Below, in pieces: positions 1,739 to 44,187 of a stretch of DNA of 64,000 nt (positions are counted from its first letter, which is position 1; each line of letters begins with the position of its first letter). The translations under genes and the position numbers were made by a program. The stretch is from a bacterium (GTDB taxonomy: Bacteria > Patescibacteriota > Minisyncoccia > Phycocordibacterales > UBA12088), in NCBI GenBank assembly GCA_003252295.1, contig QKEV01000007.1, positions 80,139-144,138 of the forward strand, read 5' to 3'. The notes beneath the pieces are model-generated. The model was not told the origin of the DNA, ran no database searches, and was given only the letters and a program-made list of their open reading frames with translations.

Positions 1739-3463
1739 CTACAGTGTCTTCACCATGTAGGTATGGTCGAGTTTGTACCCAAGTTTGTTCTTATAGTACT
1801 CACGTACCCCAACACCTGAGATAACTGCTAGTTTTTTACAACCGGATTCACGTGCAATACGTTCTGCTTCCTGCATGAGTCGCATACCTAAACCACGATG
1901 CTGACCCTGGTCACCCTTATTCTTGATTTTCATGAGCTGTCCGTAGGTATGCAGTTCCCGTACAATAGCAGCGTCACGTAAGACTTCTAAGTTACCTGTG
2001 AATGTAGTGGTAGCATCTTTGTCAGGTAAACGTAGTCTACAGAATGCTGCACACTTGTTTTCAGATGTGTGTTCAAAGCTAAGAAAAATCTCTTTTCCAG
2101 TAACGGTGTTGTACTCAATAGTTTGCAGTTCGTAATCATCCAGTTGTACTTGGTTGTTGCGGATCTCACGACAGCGTATACACTCACATTGCCAGTTGTG
2201 CTTTTTCTGATCTTCGAGTATCACTTGTCGAAGGTTAGAAACCTTGCTTCCTGCAATGATGTAACTTGCCGGAATATCACGTATGACTCGCAGGATACGA
2301 ACGTACCTTGGTACCTGTTTTTTCGCCTCACGAAGTACATGTATCAATTCATCGTCAGTGTATGGTTTGAACTCACCTCGCTCCCACATGGTGTAGAGCA
2401 CGCTTCCTTTCAGTACGACACAAGGATACATTTTGAGCATATCCGGATGGTACTTGTTGCCATTAAAAAGATCACCAAACATTTGTATATCCATCTCGGG
2501 TGTGCTGCCGGGTAAATTTGGCATCATGTGGTACACCACCTTGAAACCAGCGTTTCTCATGAGCTCAGTTGCATCAGAAATTTCTTTTGCCGTCATGTCA
2601 CGTTGATTGAATGACAAAACACTATCCTGTAAGTGCTGTACACCAATTTCTATCTTCGTGACACCGAGCCATCGAAGTCTATTCAACTCCTCTTCGTTTA
2701 TATGATCAGGTCGCGTTTCAATAGAGAGACCTATGATTCGAGCACCAGCAGTCTCATTCTCCTGTTGCAGCTCTTCAAGTGATAGTTCAGTGCCAGTCTC
2801 ATACTCATCATCACCCTTAGTAAAGTTGTTGGCAGCACGAAATATTTCAGAGATAAACTCTTCCTGGTAGTCCTTCTCGTATGCACTCCACGTTCCACCT
2901 ATGACAATAACTTCAAGCTTATCTATAGGGTGTCCATTTGCCACGAGTGCTCGCATTCTGTTTTGTACCTGTGCATAGGGATCAAAGTTGTTGGCAAGTG
3001 CTCGTGCAGCAGCAGGTTCTTTCGATAGGTAGCTTTTCGGCATTTCCTTCTCAAAGGGGCAGTAGATACATCTTCCGGGACATTGGTACGGTTTTGTTAA
3101 GAGCGAAACAACAGCAACACCGGAATTACTGCGCACTTTTATTTTCCGTAAAATTTGCTCAACTTCTTTTGATGGCTTTTGCTCACCCTTTTTTACCAAG
3201 TCTTTGTAGTAGGCAACCATCTCAGAGTTTGATGGCATCCTCCTCTCATCGTTTGGATTGCTAGCATGTTTCAAGTCAGGTCCATACGTTGTTGCGGTCT
3301 TTTTTCGAATATCCATAAAGTGTGCGTGCAAATTCTTATCACGCATTATGTTGCACTTAAGCAGTTCTAGGTCTTTTTCTGTTTTTATGTCGTCGAAAAG
3401 CATCGCTGTATCTTTAATGGAATTCAATGATAGTATGTTTGAGTGAAAAAGGAAACAGCGCAA
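1739..3463 (-). CDS. elp3: Elp3-like tRNA uridine(34) modification enzyme: radical SAM domain plus C-terminal GNAT acetyltransferase domain
   Basis: Radical SAM cluster CPGRCIYCP. The length is 574 aa. The C-terminal acetyl-CoA-binding motif is QHRGLGMRLMQEAERIA. The true start is possibly ATG at 3403 (MLFDDIK...), 22 nt downstream of a TACTAT -10-like box. Confidence 0.85.
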   Translation of the reverse strand: MRCFLFHSNILSLNSIKDTAMLFDDIKTEKDLELLKCNIMRDKNLHAHFMDIRKKTATTYGPDLKHASNPNDERRMPSNSEMVAYYKDLVKKGEQKPSKEVEQILRKIKVRSNSGVAVVSLLTKPYQCPGRCIYCPFEKEMPKSYLSKEPAAARALANNFDPYAQVQNRMRALVANGHPIDKLEVIVIGGTWSAYEKDYQEEFISEIFRAANNFTKGDDEYETGTELSLEELQQENETAGARIIGLSIETRPDHINEEELNRLRWLGVTKIEIGVQHLQDSVLSFNQRDMTAKEISDATELMRNAGFKVVYHMMPNLPGSTPEMDIQMFGDLFNGNKYHPDMLKMYPCVVLKGSVLYTMWERGEFKPYTDDELIHVLREAKKQVPRYVRILRVIRDIPASYIIAGSKVSNLRQVILEDQKKHNWQCECIRCREIRNNQVQLDDYELQTIEYNTVTGKEIFLSFEHTSENKCAAFCRLRLPDKDATTTFTGNLEVLRDAAIVRELHTYGQLMKIKNKGDQGQHRGLGMRLMQEAERIARESGCKKLAVISGVGVREYYKNKLGYKLDHTYMVKTL

Positions 3464-4135
3464 GCGCTTCTGAAACTTTCAAGAGACGAGTACGACACAT
3501 ATGCATCTGAGTTTTCTGGTACGAGAAAGTTTTTTTGGCGTGAGCTTGAGTTTCTAAAAGAGTATGTGACACCAGGTTCTAAGATACTTGATATTGGCTG
3601 CGGTAACGGTCGCCTCCTTGATCTCTTTGAGGGTCTAGATATTGAGTACACAGGTATAGACTCTTCAAAAGAGCTTATCGCAATAGCACAAAAAGAAAGA
3701 GGATCACGAGGTGCTTTTATTCATGCTGACGCACTCTCGCTTCCCTTTGAGGATGGTACTTTTGATGTTGTGTTTTCGGTAGCTATGCTACATCATGTGC
3801 CTGATCATAAAAATAGGATGCAGTGTGTTTCTGAGGCGCAGCGTGTTTTGAAGCATGGAGGTACTTGTGTGTTTACTGTCTGGAACACCTTACAGTGGCG
3901 GTTTTTTAAGCAACATCTAGTACAAACAGGTAGAAAACTTTGTGGTCTCTCAGACTTAGATCTTGGTGACATGATCATCACCTTTGGAAAAAAGAAGAGA
4001 AAGCGCTTCGTGCATTCTTTATCAAAGAGAGCACTTCAATCACTCTTTGAGAAAAATAGTTTTTTGGATACTATGGTGAGAGAGGTAAAACGTAAAAGTG
4101 GTTTTGCAAACTTTATAGTAACTGCAAAAAAATAA
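3443..4135 (+). CDS. Class I SAM-dependent methyltransferase, Trm9-like
   Basis: Motif I ILDIGCGNGRLL and motif LHHV. GTG start 6 nt after a TAGTAT box. It is divergent from elp3. Confidence 0.7.
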   Translation: MKKETAQALLKLSRDEYDTYASEFSGTRKFFWRELEFLKEYVTPGSKILDIGCGNGRLLDLFEGLDIEYTGIDSSKELIAIAQKERGSRGAFIHADALSLPFEDGTFDVVFSVAMLHHVPDHKNRMQCVSEAQRVLKHGGTCVFTVWNTLQWRFFKQHLVQTGRKLCGLSDLDLGDMIITFGKKKRKRFVHSLSKRALQSLFEKNSFLDTMVREVKRKSGFANFIVTAKK

Positions 4136-4140
4136 ACATA

Positions 4141-4545
4141 TTGCTTATGGATACAAAAATAATTATTGCTTCAGGTCCGGTGATTGTCGAAGATGGTAAG
4201 GTTCTTCTTGACGAGCACGGTGATACTGATTACTGGAAATTTTGTGGTGGTGAGGTGCAGGACTTTACTCATGACCTCATCGAAAATGCTAAAAACAGAG
4301 CGAAAGAAGAGATTGGTGTTGATGTTGAGATACTTGATGAGACGCCGTTTATTTTTCATACAACAAAGGTAAAAGAGTATGGTAGAGTTGACTACCTTGT
4401 AGTGCATTTTTTGGCAAAGCGAATTGGAGAGGTGGTACCCGGAAGTGACATACGAGAATGGGCATGGATACCCCTTAATGAGCTTCGTGCACACAAACTT
4501 GCTCCAAGTATTATGCCAGCACTCAAACACTTCAAGTTTCAGTAA
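4141..4545 (+). CDS. NUDIX-family hydrolase (probable)
   Basis: GGEVQDF...RAKEEIGV resembles the Nudix box GX5EX7REUXEEXGU, with partial matches. 134 aa. Confidence 0.5.
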   Translation: MLMDTKIIIASGPVIVEDGKVLLDEHGDTDYWKFCGGEVQDFTHDLIENAKNRAKEEIGVDVEILDETPFIFHTTKVKEYGRVDYLVVHFLAKRIGEVVPGSDIREWAWIPLNELRAHKLAPSIMPALKHFKFQ

Positions 4546-4601: not shown

Positions 4602-5135
4602 TTACACGGTCGCCATATTTGTACTTATTTTTTTTGCCCACATGAGGGCTCTTCCCTTCACACCATATCTTCTTCCTGGTATGTGCCGTGAAGACCTTGA
4701 GAAACTACAAGGTTTAGCCACGGTACGCCTGATGATTTGTTCATTTTCAGCGTCATCAGATGGACTGAAAATCTCTAAATCATCCGAATCATCTGACATC
4801 AACCAGAAATCGTCAACAATTGGATTTCCTTCAATGTCAGCAATCCCACCTTTAACTTTGCCAATCGAAGATGGGATGCGTGTCTCTCCATCAGGACATC
4901 CTTGAGGTGTGAATCCTTCCTCCCCCCAAATGTGTGGTTTGGTGGTCGAAAGTGCTGTGTGGTTTGTGTGGATACCTTGAACGAATCCAGGCGATTCACA
5001 CCGTGACTCTTCGACTCCAAGACCACGCTGCAAACGCAGTTCAAGTGAAAACGGAACAAAATATTTTTGTCCGCCGATGTTCCTGATGTCTCGTCCGTCT
5101 TTAAATCGATCTTCCAACTCTTGAATTCTTCCCAT
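4602..5135 (-). CDS. Hypothetical protein
   Basis: 177-aa ORF with no recognisable motif. Acidic D/S-rich central segment. Confidence 0.4.
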   Translation of the reverse strand: MGRIQELEDRFKDGRDIRNIGGQKYFVPFSLELRLQRGLGVEESRCESPGFVQGIHTNHTALSTTKPHIWGEEGFTPQGCPDGETRIPSSIGKVKGGIADIEGNPIVDDFWLMSDDSDDLEIFSPSDDAENEQIIRRTVAKPCSFSRSSRHIPGRRYGVKGRALMWAKKISTNMATV

Positions 5136-5295
5136 GACTACCCCCTTTTTCTTAAGTTTTGTTAAATACCTACTCTTTATATTATAACATAGTATATATA
5201 TAAGTCAAGTTACGTGTTGCAAAAATAGCCATTATTTACCATGTATTTTTCACATATATCTTTGCAACAAGTCACAACAAGTCTACAATGTAATC

Positions 5296-5964
5296 ATGAG
5301 GAACATAAACACTATTCCCTATATTCGTTACATTTACTTTGCCGCACTTACAGTCCTCCTCCTCTTGGTACTTTTTACACCAACACTCATCCATGATGGC
5401 TTTTCCGTTGTTACTGAGGAGATGCTTGAAGGTATTTGTCTCCTCATTATTACCATTGCAGGTTTTATTATTTACTCTTCCCTTGAACGACATCTTCGTG
5501 AGACGCGAAGCAAGTATGATGATTTGGCGCGTCATGTTGGTGCACTCAACCTACAGACTGTGCAGGTAGAAGCGCTCTTTGATGAGATAACAAAACTCCC
5601 TGAGAACAAACGTGACATTAAAAAAATACTCAAATCGATAGCACTCAATGTACTTTCTGTTATCACCGAGGAATGGGTGCTCGTACGTATCATTGATAAG
5701 GCAAGTGGAAGGACACTCACTGAACATATAGAGGTAAAAGATGGTAGTGATACACAGGCAAATGTGATTCCGACCATAAGCAATAAAGCTATTCTGACCG
5801 ACGAGCGTGCAAAGGAGTACTCGGTCTACACATCACGACCTGAAAATACGCGCGTGATTGCTTGTTGTGTCTTCCCTACTCATTCACTCAACAAACACCA
5901 AGAAGTGGTTATCAAAGCGGCTGTAAATAGCCTAGCGATCATTTACCTCGTGTTTGAAAAGTAA
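5296..5964 (+). CDS. Hypothetical membrane protein: two N-terminal TM helices plus a soluble domain
   Basis: Hydrophobic N-terminus. ATG sits 6 nt after a TACAAT box. Confidence 0.5.
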   Translation: MRNINTIPYIRYIYFAALTVLLLLVLFTPTLIHDGFSVVTEEMLEGICLLIITIAGFIIYSSLERHLRETRSKYDDLARHVGALNLQTVQVEALFDEITKLPENKRDIKKILKSIALNVLSVITEEWVLVRIIDKASGRTLTEHIEVKDGSDTQANVIPTISNKAILTDERAKEYSVYTSRPENTRVIACCVFPTHSLNKHQEVVIKAAVNSLAIIYLVFEK

Positions 5965-39182: not shown

Positions 39183-39839
39183 CTAGCGTTTTTGTTTCCA
39201 TTCCTCTATTTTTTTGTGATCACCAGAGAGAAGTACCTTTGGTACACGGTAGTTCTTTTCTTTCCATTTTAATACCTCAGGTCGAGTATACACATCGTGA
39301 CTTGCAGTGCGTCGCTCTTCAAGAGAGTCGTAGTTACCAAGTACACCAGGTACCCTCCTTGCAATAGCGTCAAGCATAACCATCGCTGGCAGCTCACCAC
39401 CAGTAAGTGTATACGGACCTATGGTCACCGCCTCTGCACGAAGTATTTTCTTCACACGCGCATCAATTCCCTCATACCTGCCACATATCATAACCACATG
39501 ATCGTAGCGCTTTGCCACCTTTTCAGCGTAGCCAGTATCAAACTGCGTTCCCTCCGGCTCAAAAAATATTACTTTTACCTGCCTCCTATCCTTTCTGCCG
39601 ATTGCCTTGGAAACCGCCTTCAAGATACTTTCAGCTTCAAGCACCATACCTGGTCCACCACCATACGGCTTTTGATCTACACGTCTATGCTTGTCTTTTG
39701 TAAAGTCACGCGGGTTGTACATCCTCACCTCGATCTTCTTGTCTTCAATAGCTCGCTTCACAATGGATTCCTCAAGGTAAGAATCAAGTGCATGTGGAAA
39801 CAAGGTGATTATGTGAAATGTAATTTTATTTGTTTTCAT
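39183..39839 (-). CDS. trmD: tRNA (guanine37-N1)-methyltransferase
   Basis: SPOUT-fold motifs. RVDQKPYGGGPGMVL and the 218-aa length are typical of TrmD. Confidence 0.85.
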   Translation of the reverse strand: MKTNKITFHIITLFPHALDSYLEESIVKRAIEDKKIEVRMYNPRDFTKDKHRRVDQKPYGGGPGMVLEAESILKAVSKAIGRKDRRQVKVIFFEPEGTQFDTGYAEKVAKRYDHVVMICGRYEGIDARVKKILRAEAVTIGPYTLTGGELPAMVMLDAIARRVPGVLGNYDSLEERRTASHDVYTRPEVLKWKEKNYRVPKVLLSGDHKKIEEWKQKR

Positions 39840-39918
39840 GTTTGTACGATACTACTTCTTACCATTTAATGACAAGGAGCGCTACAAGTGGTATCACTTG
39901 TAGCGCTTCAAAACTTAC

Positions 39919-40074
39919 TCATTCTTCATTTGCTGTTTCCGTCTTAAGAGTAGGAAGTGTATCATCTCCGGTATCATCTTTCACAGCATCCTTCCGTACC
40001 CTGTCTTCATCACACCCCAACTCCCATAACATATTATTTAATATGTCTTCTGGAAACATGTCTTCTGGAAACAT
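39919..40074 (-). CDS. Small acidic protein (51 aa) with N-terminal MFPED-MFPED tandem repeat and a canonical SD
   Basis: AAGGAGGttgct-ATG. The ORF is MFPEDMFPEDILNNMLWELGCDEDRVRKDAVKDDTGDDTLPTLKTETANEE. It is not in the ORF table (<60 aa). Confidence 0.35.
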   Translation of the reverse strand: MFPEDMFPEDILNNMLWELGCDEDRVRKDAVKDDTGDDTLPTLKTETANEE

Positions 40075-40204
40075 AGCAACCTCCTTGAGGATAATTCATA
40101 CACCTTTACGTTGTTTCTAGATTATTTGTACGTGATACCCTCTTACCTGTCAAACACAAAACGCCCAGTGGGCGTTTTGTGTTTAGAAAGTTTAAAATTT
40201 CAAC

Positions 40205-40621
40205 TTAGTCCATTTTAAGGTCAGCCATTGCCTCGTCGAGAGACTTGGTAACCTCAGATGTGTCGCTGTATGATGCATCCTCCTCAGCTGGAGCTGCTGC
40301 TCCTTCCTGTGAACGAAGACCACCTTCAGGTTCATTTATTTTAAGATTTACACGTGAATTGTTTTTCATTCCGACTACACGAAGTAGGGTACGTATTGCC
40401 TTTGCTGTGTTTCCACTGCGGCCAATGATTTTACCCATGTCTGCTGCGTCAACATCAAGAGTAAGAAGCACACCCATTTCATCAACGGTGCGATCTACCT
40501 TTACAGCATCAGGATTATCTACGAGTCCTTTAACAACGTACTCTAAAAATTTCTGATCATCTTCCATATTACTTTTTTTCAGAATTAACTGGTTATCTGT
40601 TAATAAATGTGTCGAATACAC
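40205..40621 (-). CDS. KH-domain RNA-binding protein (KhpA/YlqC-like) with an acidic C-terminal extension
   Basis: GKIIGRSGNTAKAIRTLL is a KH GxxG loop. Position between rpsP and trmD as in the canonical operon. Confidence 0.7.
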   Translation of the reverse strand: MYSTHLLTDNQLILKKSNMEDDQKFLEYVVKGLVDNPDAVKVDRTVDEMGVLLTLDVDAADMGKIIGRSGNTAKAIRTLLRVVGMKNNSRVNLKINEPEGGLRSQEGAAAPAEEDASYSDTSEVTKSLDEAMADLKMD

Positions 40622-40675
40622 TCGACTAGTACTATTGTACCTGCGAGTGCTGTATTCGCAAAATCATAAGTGCTA

Positions 40676-41095
40676 CTACTTTTCTTCAGTAGCTTCAGCG
40701 GGTGTTTCTTCTTTAGTTTCTTCAGGAGCTTCCTCAGTCTTTACCTCCTCAGTGTCGCCTTCCTCTTTCTTTGCTTCAGCAGGAGCTTCCTCTGCTGGTA
40801 CTTCTTCAGTCTCCTTTACTATTGGACTCTTCTTAGGAAGTACATTCTTCTTTTCTCCCTTTATTACACCTTCACGCACGAGAAGGTTGTGAAGCGTATC
40901 TGATACCTGTGCTCCAACACCAATCCAGTGCTGAACACGCTCAGTATCAAGCTTTATCTCATCAGTATGTGGGTTGTAATGCCCTATTAACTCCTTATAG
41001 TTTGAGCTCTTAGCAGCTCTTGTCTTTTCGGTAACAACCACGCGAAATTCAGCATGGTTTCTTCGTCCGACACGTTGCAATCGAATCATTAACAT
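40676..41095 (-). CDS. rpsP: 30S ribosomal protein S16 with a Lys/Glu-rich C-terminal tail
   Basis: MLMIRLQRVGRRNHAEFRVVV...GHYNPH matches the S16 N-terminus. The ORF table begins at an upstream Met (41134). Confidence 0.8.
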   Translation of the reverse strand: MLMIRLQRVGRRNHAEFRVVVTEKTRAAKSSNYKELIGHYNPHTDEIKLDTERVQHWIGVGAQVSDTLHNLLVREGVIKGEKKNVLPKKSPIVKETEEVPAEEAPAEAKKEEGDTEEVKTEEAPEETKEETPAEATEEK

Positions 41096-41179
41096 AGTGG
41101 GGAGTACTGTACCAGACTTACATAAAATGGTCAAGAAAAAAACGAACCCCGTGCAGTACGTACGGGGTTCTCCAAAAGA

Positions 41180-41916: not shown

Positions 41917-41946
41917 TAAAAAACTAGGTGTTGTACCTAGTTTTTT
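41917..41946. terminator. Bidirectional rho-independent terminator
   Basis: aaaaaa-ctaggt-gttgt-acctag-tttttt. Confidence 0.65.
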
Positions 41947-41970
41947 ATTTTATTTGTATGTGATTCTCTG

Positions 41971-42687
41971 CTATCCCCACCCTTTTGCCTCGAGTGCTGC
42001 CTGAGCTGCCTCCTGCTCTGCCTCCTGCTTACTCCTACCCTTCCCAGTAGCCACCTGCTCATCGTTCAGGAATGCTCCAACAGTGAAATGTTTATCATGG
42101 TCTGGACCCTCTTCCTTCACCACAGCATAGCTTGGTGTGATAGAAACATGCTCCTGTGCCTTTTCTTGGAAGTAGCTCTTGCTGTCCTGCCAGAGGCGTT
42201 TCTTCACCACCTCATCAGCAAGCGGGAAGATATTTTTCGCAATAAAGTCATTTGCCACCTCGTACCCCTGATCAAGATAAATAGCGCCAATCACCGCCTC
42301 AAATGCATCAGCAAGTATGTACTGTCGCGCGCGTCCTGTGTCTCGTGACTCACCCTTTGACAGGAATAGACAGTCGTTCATACCGAGCTTTGTTGCAGCA
42401 CTAGAAATAGTATGTGTGTTTACGAGTGCAGCACGATACGCCGTTAGATCACCCTCATTCTTTTCTTCATACTTATCAAAAAGAAACCGAGTGACCGTGA
42501 GTTCGAGTACCGCATCACCCAAGAACTCGAGTCGCTCGTTGTGTTCAATACTCTCACCACGGTGCTCGTTTACGTAACTCCGATGTGTGAACGCAGTATG
42601 AAGTAATGAAATGGTGTTAAAAGATATACCAATATTATTTGCAAAATTTTGTATGTTGTTCTGTATTGTATCTCGTGACATAGACAT
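41971..42687 (-). CDS. rnc: Ribonuclease III
   Basis: ERLEFLGDAVLE RNase III signature plus C-terminal dsRBD. Confidence 0.9.
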   Translation of the reverse strand: MSMSRDTIQNNIQNFANNIGISFNTISLLHTAFTHRSYVNEHRGESIEHNERLEFLGDAVLELTVTRFLFDKYEEKNEGDLTAYRAALVNTHTISSAATKLGMNDCLFLSKGESRDTGRARQYILADAFEAVIGAIYLDQGYEVANDFIAKNIFPLADEVVKKRLWQDSKSYFQEKAQEHVSITPSYAVVKEEGPDHDKHFTVGAFLNDEQVATGKGRSKQEAEQEAAQAALEAKGWG

Positions 42688-42746: not shown

Positions 42747-43670
42747 TTATTTCTCGTCCCCAACTGCAAGGAGAACATTTATCGCTTTAGTAATGATCGG
42801 AAGCATGTCATGGTAGAAGTTGAGCTCAAGAATATCAGCAAGCTTAAACCAACGCGCATCATCAAGCCCTCCTTTGTCTTCTAGCACAATATCCTTAAAA
42901 GGTGCTTCAACAAGGAAATAGGTAACATTTTTACGTATCTTTCCTTTTTCCGGATTTGAAGCAACGTACTCATTCTCACCTAGTTTTTCTTTAATCGTTA
43001 CCTCAAGACCCAGTTCCTGTTTGATCTCACGAACCGTACCTTCCTCCTCGGTCTCAGCATCTTCGATGCCACCCTTTGCCAAGGTCCAGTGTCCAAAGAC
43101 ATCATGTACGAGTGCAACATACATATCACCCTCATGTTGGGCATACACCACAGCACCACCTTTTCGCTCAATTGGCATCTTTTCATATGGCACCATTGGC
43201 ATTTTCTTTTTCTTTTTTGATGTCTCGTCCTTACCTGGTTCACCAAGCTCTTTATAAACACCACCAATAACACCATTCACAAATGCACCTGATGAATCAC
43301 CACCAAAATTCTTTGCAAGCTCAATCGCCTCATTAATAGCAACTTTTGCAGGCACCTCAGCGCGATCAGCAAACAAAAGCTCATAGAGTCCTATACGCAA
43401 GATATTTCTATCTACTCGAGCTATCTTGTCGAGTGGCCACTCCGGTGCTGCTTTTGTAATAACAGCATCAAGATCTTCTTGTTTTGTTAGTACACCATCA
43501 AGGAGCCGCTTCATAAACGGCTTGTCTTTTGTAGTATCAGTAAATTCTTTGATGTTGCGGTCAAGAATTACCTCAGGCGTTTCTGCCTCGGTTTTACCTT
43601 CTTCTGTGTTCATGTCCCACTCAAAGAGTGTTTGCAGAACTATTGACCTTGATAGGTGTCTATTCGACAT
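42747..43670 (-). CDS. nusB: NusB-like antitermination domain fused to a C-terminal NUDIX hydrolase domain
   Basis: The N-terminal ~150 aa is a NusB fold. The C-terminal half has the Nudix box GGIEDAETEEEGTVREIKQELGLEV (REx2EExGU). Confidence 0.65.
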   Translation of the reverse strand: MSNRHLSRSIVLQTLFEWDMNTEEGKTEAETPEVILDRNIKEFTDTTKDKPFMKRLLDGVLTKQEDLDAVITKAAPEWPLDKIARVDRNILRIGLYELLFADRAEVPAKVAINEAIELAKNFGGDSSGAFVNGVIGGVYKELGEPGKDETSKKKKKMPMVPYEKMPIERKGGAVVYAQHEGDMYVALVHDVFGHWTLAKGGIEDAETEEEGTVREIKQELGLEVTIKEKLGENEYVASNPEKGKIRKNVTYFLVEAPFKDIVLEDKGGLDDARWFKLADILELNFYHDMLPIITKAINVLLAVGDEK

Positions 43671-43739: not shown

Positions 43740-44012
43740 CTACTTACTCGCCTCCTCTTTCTTCTTTGAAGAAGCTTTTTTCGTGTCAGCAACTTTCTTT
43801 ACAGGTTTTTTCTTAGCTGGTGCCTTTTTAGTAGTAACCTTTTCAGCACCACCTACAGCAATAATCTGCTTACCACGATACATGCCAGTATCTGGATCTG
43901 CAAAGTGACGTCGTCGGACGCCTGTTTTTGTTGCAACAAGACGTGGCGTGCCTTTGTTATGATGGGCACGACGTGAAGCCGTCTTGCTATGGGTCAATTT
44001 CATTCGTACTGA
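43740..44012 (-). CDS. rpmF: 50S ribosomal protein L32 with a Lys/Ala-rich C-terminal extension
   Basis: KTASRRAHHNK...RRRHFADPDTGMYRGKQI matches the L32 pattern (..SRRR..RRSH.AL....D..TG.Y.RG..I). The ORF table starts at an upstream Met. Confidence 0.65.
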   Translation of the reverse strand, partial: SVRMKLTHSKTASRRAHHNKGTPRLVATKTGVRRRHFADPDTGMYRGKQIIAVGGAEKVTTKKAPAKKKPVKKVADTKKASSKKKEEASK

Positions 44013-44187
44013 CATAGCGTCTACTATACTCAACAATTCCAAATATGCAAGCCCTGTTAGAGATTAAAACTGTATAACCATGGCTTTATTAAGCAGGAGG
44101 TTACTTAAAAAACATCACGAAAATCGATCAAAAAACGAACGGACACGACATGTGTTCTATCTCTAACGGGGTAATGGGTTTTCTACA

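Follow-up and report, generated by a model that had tools for sequence, protein, structure and literature searches.

A NusB protein with a tethered Nudix domain is conserved across the class Paceibacteria, and the catalytic residues of the added domain are eroding

The window analysed here is a 64-kb (64,000-nucleotide) stretch of contig QKEV01000007.1 from a bacterium of the Patescibacteriota. The gene at 42747-43670 on its reverse strand, nusB::nudix, encodes the antitermination factor NusB joined to a Nudix domain; it is a genuine fusion gene, and the fusion is conserved across the class Paceibacteria. Within the fused family the catalytic residues of the Nudix domain are under relaxed constraint, and its fold and ligand-site-type residues are maintained. 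As judged from these patterns of conservation, the extra domain is probably mainly a binding or sensing module, and not mainly an enzyme. The NusB family and the Nudix superfamily are both already known; their fusion, with an eroding Nudix domain, is the new element. No description of a NusB-Nudix fusion, or of NusB in the Candidate Phyla Radiation, was found in the literature, and hundreds of the fused proteins are labelled simply 'NusB' in public databases.

By direct reading of the sequence, the open reading frame (ORF) is single, uninterrupted and complete, running in the ORF list from an ATG start at 43670 through 307 codons to a stop at 42747-42749. Its 307-amino-acid product is about twice the normal length of NusB, as an earlier note on this DNA had observed. 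NusB is normally a bare helical protein of 130-150 amino acids, and is among the best-conserved and best-studied bacterial transcription factors. Profile searches placed the domain boundaries at residues 7-139 (Pfam NusB) and 175-293 (Pfam NUDIX), both above their cut-offs, and so bore out the fusion within one ORF that the note had claimed. The identical public protein (P0002) has 288 amino acids, as its start was called at M20. The 19 residues preceding that methionine (MSNRHLSRSIVLQTLFEWD, 43614-43670, reverse strand) are the beginning of NusB helix 1. They are also kept family-wide, with R4 in 99%, R8 in 100% and Q13 in 98% of 107 diverse family members, and this conservation argues that 43670 is the real start and that the P0002 annotation is N-terminally truncated.

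The earlier note had also raised the possibility that a frameshift or sequencing error created the fusion, with two separate genes in relatives. This was looked for, and the same continuous ORF was found in independent assemblies. Both Pfam domains were present in 120/120 of the best matches among 5.8 billion proteins searched (68-100% identity, 286-334 amino acids), at least 567 GTDB species-representative genomes (one genome per species scanned) encode a relative, and an independent Logan assembly also contains the identical protein. Together with the related loci, these results rule out frameshift, misassembly and read-through. Some residues of the linker between the two domains are, in addition, conserved within the close clade (121 sequences, at least 68% identity), and an artefact joining two separate genes is hardly credible.

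The N-terminal half is an orthodox NusB by sequence and fold. The all-helical NusB domain (residues 1-144; 43239-43670, reverse strand) was recognised by Pfam, TIGR01951, PDB sequence matches, an AlphaFold2 (AF2) model and Foldseek. The Pfam NusB match (PF01029) had an E-value of 1.6e-35 and 122.8 bits (cut-off 23.1) and spanned profile positions 3-132 of 133; the NCBIfam equivalog TIGR01951 (nusB) was passed with 124.1 bits against a cut-off of 88.35. The NusB proteins of T. maritima, Aquifex and E. coli were matched in the PDB at 1e-16 to 4e-19. In the AF2 model this half forms seven helices with a high predicted local distance difference test score (pLDDT), and Foldseek aligned it to T. maritima NusB (1tzv) with a template modelling (TM) score of 0.88 on the target and 33% identity. 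It is the best-conserved part of the protein among the 107 diverse family members, its N-terminal Arg residues and NEAIELAK and FVNGVL motifs being conserved. The protein therefore resembles NusB (TIGR01951/PF01029) in fold, N-terminal Arg residues, equivalog score and public name, and differs from it in being twice the normal length and in bearing a C-terminal Nudix domain on a tether. The 16S ribosomal RNA (rRNA) 5-methylcytosine methyltransferase RsmB/Sun also combines a NusB-like N-terminal RNA-binding domain with a catalytic domain that acts on rRNA; however, its C-terminal domain is a methyltransferase, and RsmB models scored far below cut-off in the NusB half (63 bits against 319). No second NusB ORF was found among those ORFs of the 64-kb window that were scanned.

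In the AF2 model, which was built on a 50-sequence alignment, NusB and the Nudix domain are joined by a flexible Lys-rich tether of about 20 residues (residues 145-166, EPGKDETSKKKKKMPMVPYEKM; 43173-43238, reverse strand). Two confidently folded domains were obtained (mean pLDDT 85), and the pLDDT fell below 50 at residues 145-156. The linker is also the least conserved region: its mean pairwise identity is 0.32, compared with 0.46 in the Nudix domain and 0.56 in NusB. Full-length Foldseek matches to Dcp2 and MutY, at root-mean-square deviations of 13-16 Å, were set aside as reflecting a similar 'helical domain + Nudix' architecture only, with no common arrangement.

The C-terminal half (residues 167-300; 42771-43172, reverse strand) is a Nudix-fold domain that belongs, by sequence and fold, to the group of hydrolases of diadenosine tetraphosphate (Ap4A) and related diadenosine oligophosphates (ApnA), the NUDT2-like group. 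The Pfam NUDIX match (PF00293) had an E-value of 1.9e-13 and 51 bits (cut-off 21.1). The best PDB sequence matches were CT771, the Aquifex Ap4A hydrolase, Rv2985/MutT1, Ndx1, and the C. elegans and human Ap4A hydrolases. Foldseek placed the Aquifex Ap4A hydrolase (3i7u, TM 0.87) and the Thermus Ap6A hydrolase Ndx1 (1vc8, TM 0.85; both on target) first, followed by MutT1/Rv2985, CT771, and the C. elegans and human enzymes. The NCBIfam RppH equivalog models were not passed, at 15-25 bits against cut-offs of 116-241. With the Ap4A/ApnA hydrolases (NUDT2, C. elegans, aq_158, Ndx1, CT771, MutT1/Rv2985) the domain shares the HWTxPKG motif and equivalents of K36, K83, Y76, Y121 and W109.

The Nudix box of the window protein (residues 200-222, GGIEDAETEEEGTVREIKQELGL; 43005-43073, reverse strand) had been described as clean in the earlier note, which slightly overstates the match: read directly against GX5EX7REUXEEXGU, every specified position fits except the first Glu of the EE pair, which is Gln (Q218). 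Residues were mapped by alignment to the C. elegans Ap4A hydrolase. Within the box E206 equals E43, R214 equals R51, E215 equals E52, Q218 equals E55 and E219 equals E56; elsewhere H194 equals H31, K199 equals K36, Y235 equals Y76, K247 equals K83, G268 equals E103 and Y286 equals Y121. E215 also corresponds to E58 of human NUDT2, the 'RE' glutamate; at this point the PDB sequences of the mutant, given in the entry's description as E58A, read LRATQEE. Work on the Ap4A hydrolase by Bailey et al. (2002) and by Abdelghany et al. (2003) reportedly identified E56, E52 and E103 as catalytic acids, whose substitution by Gln is said to cut kcat about 1e5-, 1e3- and 30-fold, respectively, and K36, K83 and H31 as holding the P1 phosphate, with Y76 and Y121 clamping one adenosine. 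The window protein has E206, R214, E215 and E219, together with Q218 and a Gly (G268) at the position of E103, and so lacks the full set Glu52/Glu56/Glu103. With the E103-equivalent acid absent and Q218 deviant, it is not counted among the Ap4A hydrolases; its ligands may nevertheless be similar to theirs.

The state of these positions across the family was followed in the close clade and in wider samples of 107 and 116 diverse fused proteins. The close clade shows almost no variation at G200, E206, R214, E215 and E219; at position 218, 71 of the 121 sequences have Q, 27 have E and 14 have D. The R-E...E core was found in 117/121 close homologs, 35/78 species-level loci and 10/51 fused representatives of 50%-identity clusters. 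Of the 107 full-length proteins in the diverse fused sample, 44 have Glu at position 215, and most of the others have K (22), V (16), I (11) or A (8). All four acidic positions carry an acid in 38 of these 107 and in 54 of the 116 in the third, independent sample; in other words, 53-64% of diverse fused members lack part of the catalytic set. The family also has Gly at the E103-equivalent position (G268) in 103/107 proteins. The fused domain thus differs from the Ap4A hydrolases in being tied to NusB, in the family-wide Gly for E103, in the Gln for E55 in the window protein, and in the loss of the E52 equivalent in most fused lineages. Full-length stand-alone relatives have every box residue in 20/20 cases and an acid in the E103 region in 18/20. 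At each level of identity, neighbouring lineages carry different substitutions, a pattern indicating that the catalytic residues were lost repeatedly and independently.

The binding-type residues are nearly fixed in the same 107 fused proteins: K199 is kept in 106, K or R occupies position 247 in 103, Y235 is kept in 105 and Y286 in all 107. The aromatic residues W195 (107/107) and W274 (105/107) are equally constant, and conservation of the binding-type residues was 97-100% in the third sample. H194 is variable (H, Y, K or R). Outside the box, the ratio of Nudix to NusB identity is 0.83 in lineages that have lost E215 against 0.89 in intact ones, and the Nudix half keeps a length of 127-139 amino acids in the E215-lost lineages; the domain is therefore not simply decaying. 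In one subclade (P0246, P0255, P0275-P0280, P0282 and P0309) the box has been erased, with a 4-residue deletion in some members, and the precomputed Pfam annotation is NusB only. These proteins still have about 300 amino acids and the WTLPKG, GENxY, KGLNNxKWF and KYDDM motifs, and the model of P0246 is a confident Nudix fold (pLDDT 90.8; TM 0.83 to the Aquifex Ap4A hydrolase 3i7u). On these alignments, hydrolysis is unlikely to be what the fused family conserves.

These observations bear directly on the proposal of the earlier note, that NusB is coupled to nucleotide or RNA-cap pyrophosphohydrolysis. In a fuller form of that proposal, an active pyrophosphohydrolase would be brought by NusB to nascent pre-rRNA and would convert the 5'-triphosphate of the leader, or a nucleoside-tetraphosphate (Np4) or nicotinamide adenine dinucleotide (NAD) cap, to a monophosphate in the manner of RppH or NUDT2, so that RNases dependent on the 5' end could remove the leader once RNase III has cut. 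In its favour, the Nudix half falls in the Ap4A-hydrolase/NUDT2 type, NUDT2 trims PPP-RNA to P-RNA, and the NUDT2 group includes enzymes acting on RNA 5' ends (PMC8616924). RppH, likewise a Nudix enzyme on RNA 5' ends, removes Np4 caps, and dinucleoside-polyphosphate (NpnN) caps exist in bacteria (PMC8833179, PMC7044304). The flexible tether and a conserved adjacency to the RNase III gene (rnc) would also fit, as would the retention of E206, R214, E215 and E219 in the window protein and of the R-E...E core in its close clade. BdRppH (3ees) is among the fold matches of the fused protein; RppH is, however, a stand-alone enzyme with a canonical box, and the cut-offs of its models lie far above the scores obtained here. 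Two acidic catalytic positions are replaced in the window protein itself (Q218 and G268), and the domain persists even though most diverse members lack part of the catalytic set and one subclade lacks it entirely. Catalysis therefore cannot be the family-wide function. The kinship to NUDT2 and the four retained residues stand, and for the window protein itself an active hydrolase of this kind is considered unlikely, albeit with an appreciable chance of being correct.

The distribution of the fusion was examined next to that of its Nudix half. The named genomes with a relative all belong to Paceibacteria/Parcubacteria lineages, the closest 120 proteins are, where named, 'NusB' of Patescibacteria, Parcubacteria or Paceibacteria, and when a distant fused member was used as the query, the names were once more all of the Paceibacteria type. 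Searched by itself against a library clustered at 50% identity, the Nudix half matches 204 clusters at E <= 1e-10, a narrow family. Among the 150 best of these 204 clusters, 57 are detectably fused to NusB, with Nudix identity down to about 31%, and 23 are full-length stand-alone proteins of about 140 amino acids; the remainder are fragments or other architectures. From the at least 567 genomes, 80 loci were kept for a comparison of gene order; they derive from Kaiser-, Nomura-, Zambryski-, Vogel-, Niyogi- and Ryanbacteria and from Paceibacterota/Minisyncoccia lineages. No split version with adjacent, unfused nusB and nudix genes was found among the 80 loci. The closest stand-alone relative (P0195) showed no NusB upstream, but lies on a contig of 993 bp; a protein search with it gave only 5 matches, and its relative P0273 sits in an unrelated, Firmicute-like gene context.

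It might be supposed from this that the fusion is one of convenience, in which a housekeeping free-nucleotide hydrolase, serving Ap4A/ApnA clearance or sanitation of oxidised nucleoside triphosphates (NTPs), became attached, in a streamlined genome, to a neighbouring gene with constitutive expression and is not linked to NusB in mechanism. Free-nucleotide hydrolases (Ap4A and Ap6A hydrolases, MutT1/Rv2985) are indeed its closest characterised relatives, the linker is disordered with no predicted inter-domain interface, and the same Nudix subfamily is found alone and in other fusions. A housekeeping enzyme should, however, keep its catalytic residues, as the 20/20 stand-alone relatives do, or be lost; here the residues erode and the domain, its length and its binding-type residues persist. 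The lack of a split version among the 80 loci also counts against this supposition, as does the position of the closest stand-alone relatives, which are not beside nusB. It is given only a slim chance.

The other architectures of the narrow Nudix subfamily include Metallophos (an ApaH-like fold) with NUDIX; sigma-70 region 4 and a DnaA C-terminal helix-turn-helix with NUDIX; a protein of 577 amino acids in which an N-terminal extension, with a weak cold-shock-domain match, is followed by NusB and NUDIX; and tandem NUDIX-NUDIX. Endonuclease V with NUDIX is also present and may be a chimeric gene call. The proteins bearing these architectures are P0259, P0210, P0205, P0183 and P0143. Among the related loci, an apparent insertion of about 430 bp in the NusB half of L066 proved to be a masked run of N. 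The NusB half of L078 (5001-5497, forward strand) was matched in two pieces, 5001-5246 and 5264-5497, which may be a frameshift or sequencing error in a metagenome-assembled genome.

The 80 loci also share a gene order. RNase HII, ribosomal protein L32, NusB::Nudix and RNase III follow one another on one strand in essentially every locus long enough; rnc lies directly 3' of the fusion gene in essentially all loci that reach far enough, and the L32 gene lies upstream in most. In the window, rnc (41971-42687, reverse strand; Pfam Ribonucleas_3_3, Ribonuclease_3 and dsrm) is 59 bp downstream of the fusion gene, and rpmF, encoding an L32 of 100 amino acids (43740-44042, reverse strand; Pfam Ribosomal_L32p), is 69 bp upstream. 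A scan of the window for terminator-like sites found none between the L32 gene, the fusion gene and rnc. The same scan returned a palindromic hairpin at 41917-41947, 3' of rnc, with a perfect 14-bp stem and A and T runs on both sides, and this sequence likely ends an L32-nusB::nudix-rnc transcription unit. In E. coli the context of nusB is ribE-nusB; the fusion gene thus differs from the NusB genes of model bacteria in adjoining rnc and rpmF.

A mechanism that would accommodate these observations can be outlined by analogy with other bacteria. The NusB half, with S10, would bind boxA of the nascent pre-rRNA leader, as it does elsewhere, and the tethered Nudix domain would chiefly bind a nucleoside-oligophosphate moiety, for which the candidates are, on the leader RNA, a 5'-terminal (tri/tetra)phosphate or an Np4 cap and, among free nucleotides, an effector such as Ap4A or an NTP. 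With its ligand bound, the domain would stabilise or regulate the antitermination/RNA-looping complex, through which the 16S-flanking helix reaches RNase III. Hydrolysis would be an optional extra, which may persist in lineages with an (almost) intact box, such as that of the window, and may have been lost in most others. The complex for antitermination of rRNA transcription (rrnTAC) keeps the 5' leader at the polymerase, which brings both halves of the RNase III helix together, and enhances co-transcriptional cleavage by RNase III (bioRxiv 10.64898/2026.03.17.712431); a complex that promotes this cleavage fits the invariant adjacency of nusB::nudix and rnc. A NusB-tethered module that binds a nucleoside-oligophosphate moiety and stabilises or gates the rRNA transcription and processing complex, with hydrolysis optional, is the reading tentatively preferred here, at somewhat less than an even chance. 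A more specific version is doubtful: that the tethered domain reads, and in some lineages erases, the nascent pre-rRNA 5' end or an ApnA-type alarmone, that by gripping the leader's 5'-oligophosphate or Np4 cap, or by sensing the level of Ap4A or NTPs, it stabilises or gates the antitermination/RNA-looping complex feeding the 16S-flanking helix to RNase III, and that it might replace SuhB in these reduced genomes. If this were true, it would constitute a previously unknown coupling of nucleotide or stress status, or of RNA 5'-end chemistry, to ribosome synthesis.

Two known systems provide precedents for an enzyme fold in a role of this kind. Most NrtR proteins have a perturbed Nudix signature and some an intact one; activity goes with the intact form, ligand binding is retained, and the domain serves as an effector-binding module (PMC2330246). 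NusB::Nudix resembles NrtR in having a Nudix domain fused to a nucleic-acid-binding regulator, with patchy loss of the signature and retention of the fold and ligand-site residues, a resemblance of pattern and not of homology; the NrtR Nudix domain 3gz8 is among its fold matches. NrtR differs in being related to ADP-ribose (adenosine diphosphate ribose) pyrophosphatases, in its winged-helix DNA-binding partner and in acting on NAD genes, whereas the present domain is of the Ap4A-hydrolase type and is joined to an RNA-binding antitermination factor. The evolutionary path may have been the same, from an enzyme fused to a nucleic-acid-binding factor to an effector or recognition domain. The second system is SuhB, which is integral to the NusB/NusE/boxA-dependent rRNA antitermination complex (PMC6614797, PMC6614801) and has a role in growth that is independent of its inositol monophosphatase (IMPase) activity (PMC4807359). 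It too is an enzyme-fold protein with a non-catalytic role alongside NusB, and the likeness is one of analogy only: SuhB has an inositol-monophosphatase fold, is a separate polypeptide and a dimer, and has no homology to Nudix.

The example of SuhB, an enzyme fold that is structural in the antitermination complex irrespective of catalysis, raises the possibility that the Nudix fold is purely a protein scaffold, an interaction or dimerisation surface that stands in for SuhB and has no small-molecule or RNA-end ligand. The erosion of the catalytic residues in the fused family is what would be expected. The best-conserved surface-type residues, however, align with the phosphate-binding lysines and adenosine-clamp tyrosines of the Ap4A hydrolases, which points to a nucleotide-like ligand, and E219 is kept in 92% of members. 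A pure scaffold is accordingly regarded as improbable.

Several observations weigh against the preferred reading of the Nudix domain as a tethered binding module. E219, the counterpart of C. elegans E56 and so of the glutamate that matters most, is the box residue kept in that 92%, and low or altered activity in the 'eroded' members is conceivable since it is mostly kept. E215 is kept in 117/121 members of the window's own clade, an argument for the importance of catalysis or metal binding in that clade. The whole Ap4A-hydrolase group has the conserved Lys, Tyr and Trp residues in common, and some of them may be structural. The predicted TM score (pTM) of the AF2 model was 0.49, which corresponds to no confident inter-domain packing or geometry. 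A role in rRNA transcription and processing is deduced from the gene order and from what NusB does in model bacteria; the 64-kb window contains no rRNA gene, and its 17 boxA-like motifs, against 13.1 expected, are at chance level.

The arrangement is of wider interest because a class of ultra-small, largely uncultured bacteria, represented by at least 567 species-level genomes, has placed a Nudix domain permanently on NusB and the gene beside that of RNase III. This would imply that the rRNA transcription and processing machinery of the Paceibacteria has a component without counterpart in model organisms. The combination of eroding catalytic residues and fixed binding residues predicts a binding or sensing module comparable to NrtR or SuhB, not an enzyme, and would tie the protein to Np4A/ApnA signalling, to non-canonical RNA caps and to rRNA chaperoning by the antitermination complex. 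Public annotation gives it as plain 'NusB', and in one subclade the second domain is missed by Pfam altogether.

Other features of the neighbourhood were also recorded. The hairpin at 41917-41947 sits between rnc and a downstream membrane-protein gene and looks like a bidirectional terminator. The L32 protein (43740-44042, reverse strand) has a long, low-complexity, Lys-rich C-terminal tail. Ribosomal protein S16 (40676-41134, reverse strand; 152 amino acids) has a long, low-complexity C-terminal tail rich in Glu, Ala and Lys, and KhpA (40205-40621) is extended at its C-terminus by an acidic stretch. In bacteria these genes usually stand in the order rpsP-(khpA)-rimM-trmD-rplS; the S16-KhpA-TrmD cluster of the window (39183-41134, reverse strand) is without a recognisable rimM between khpA and trmD, there being only short ORFs in 39840-40205.

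Two further genes that the earlier note had placed in the same window were found there, both about 38 kb from the fusion gene, and no link of either to it was found. The first is a stand-alone Nudix protein of 134 amino acids (4141-4545, forward strand; Pfam NUDIX 6.6e-12). Its box is degenerate (GGEVQDFTHDLIENAKNRAKEEIGV), without the Gx5E glutamate and with 'RE' changed to 'NR', and it was rejected as a paralogue of the fused domain at 22% identity over 63 amino acids. A class I methyltransferase gene (3443-4135) precedes it on the same strand. The second encodes an Elp3-like radical-SAM protein of 574 amino acids (1739-3463, reverse strand), which has Radical_SAM and Radical_SAM_C domains and a weak GNAT match and is unusual in a bacterium.

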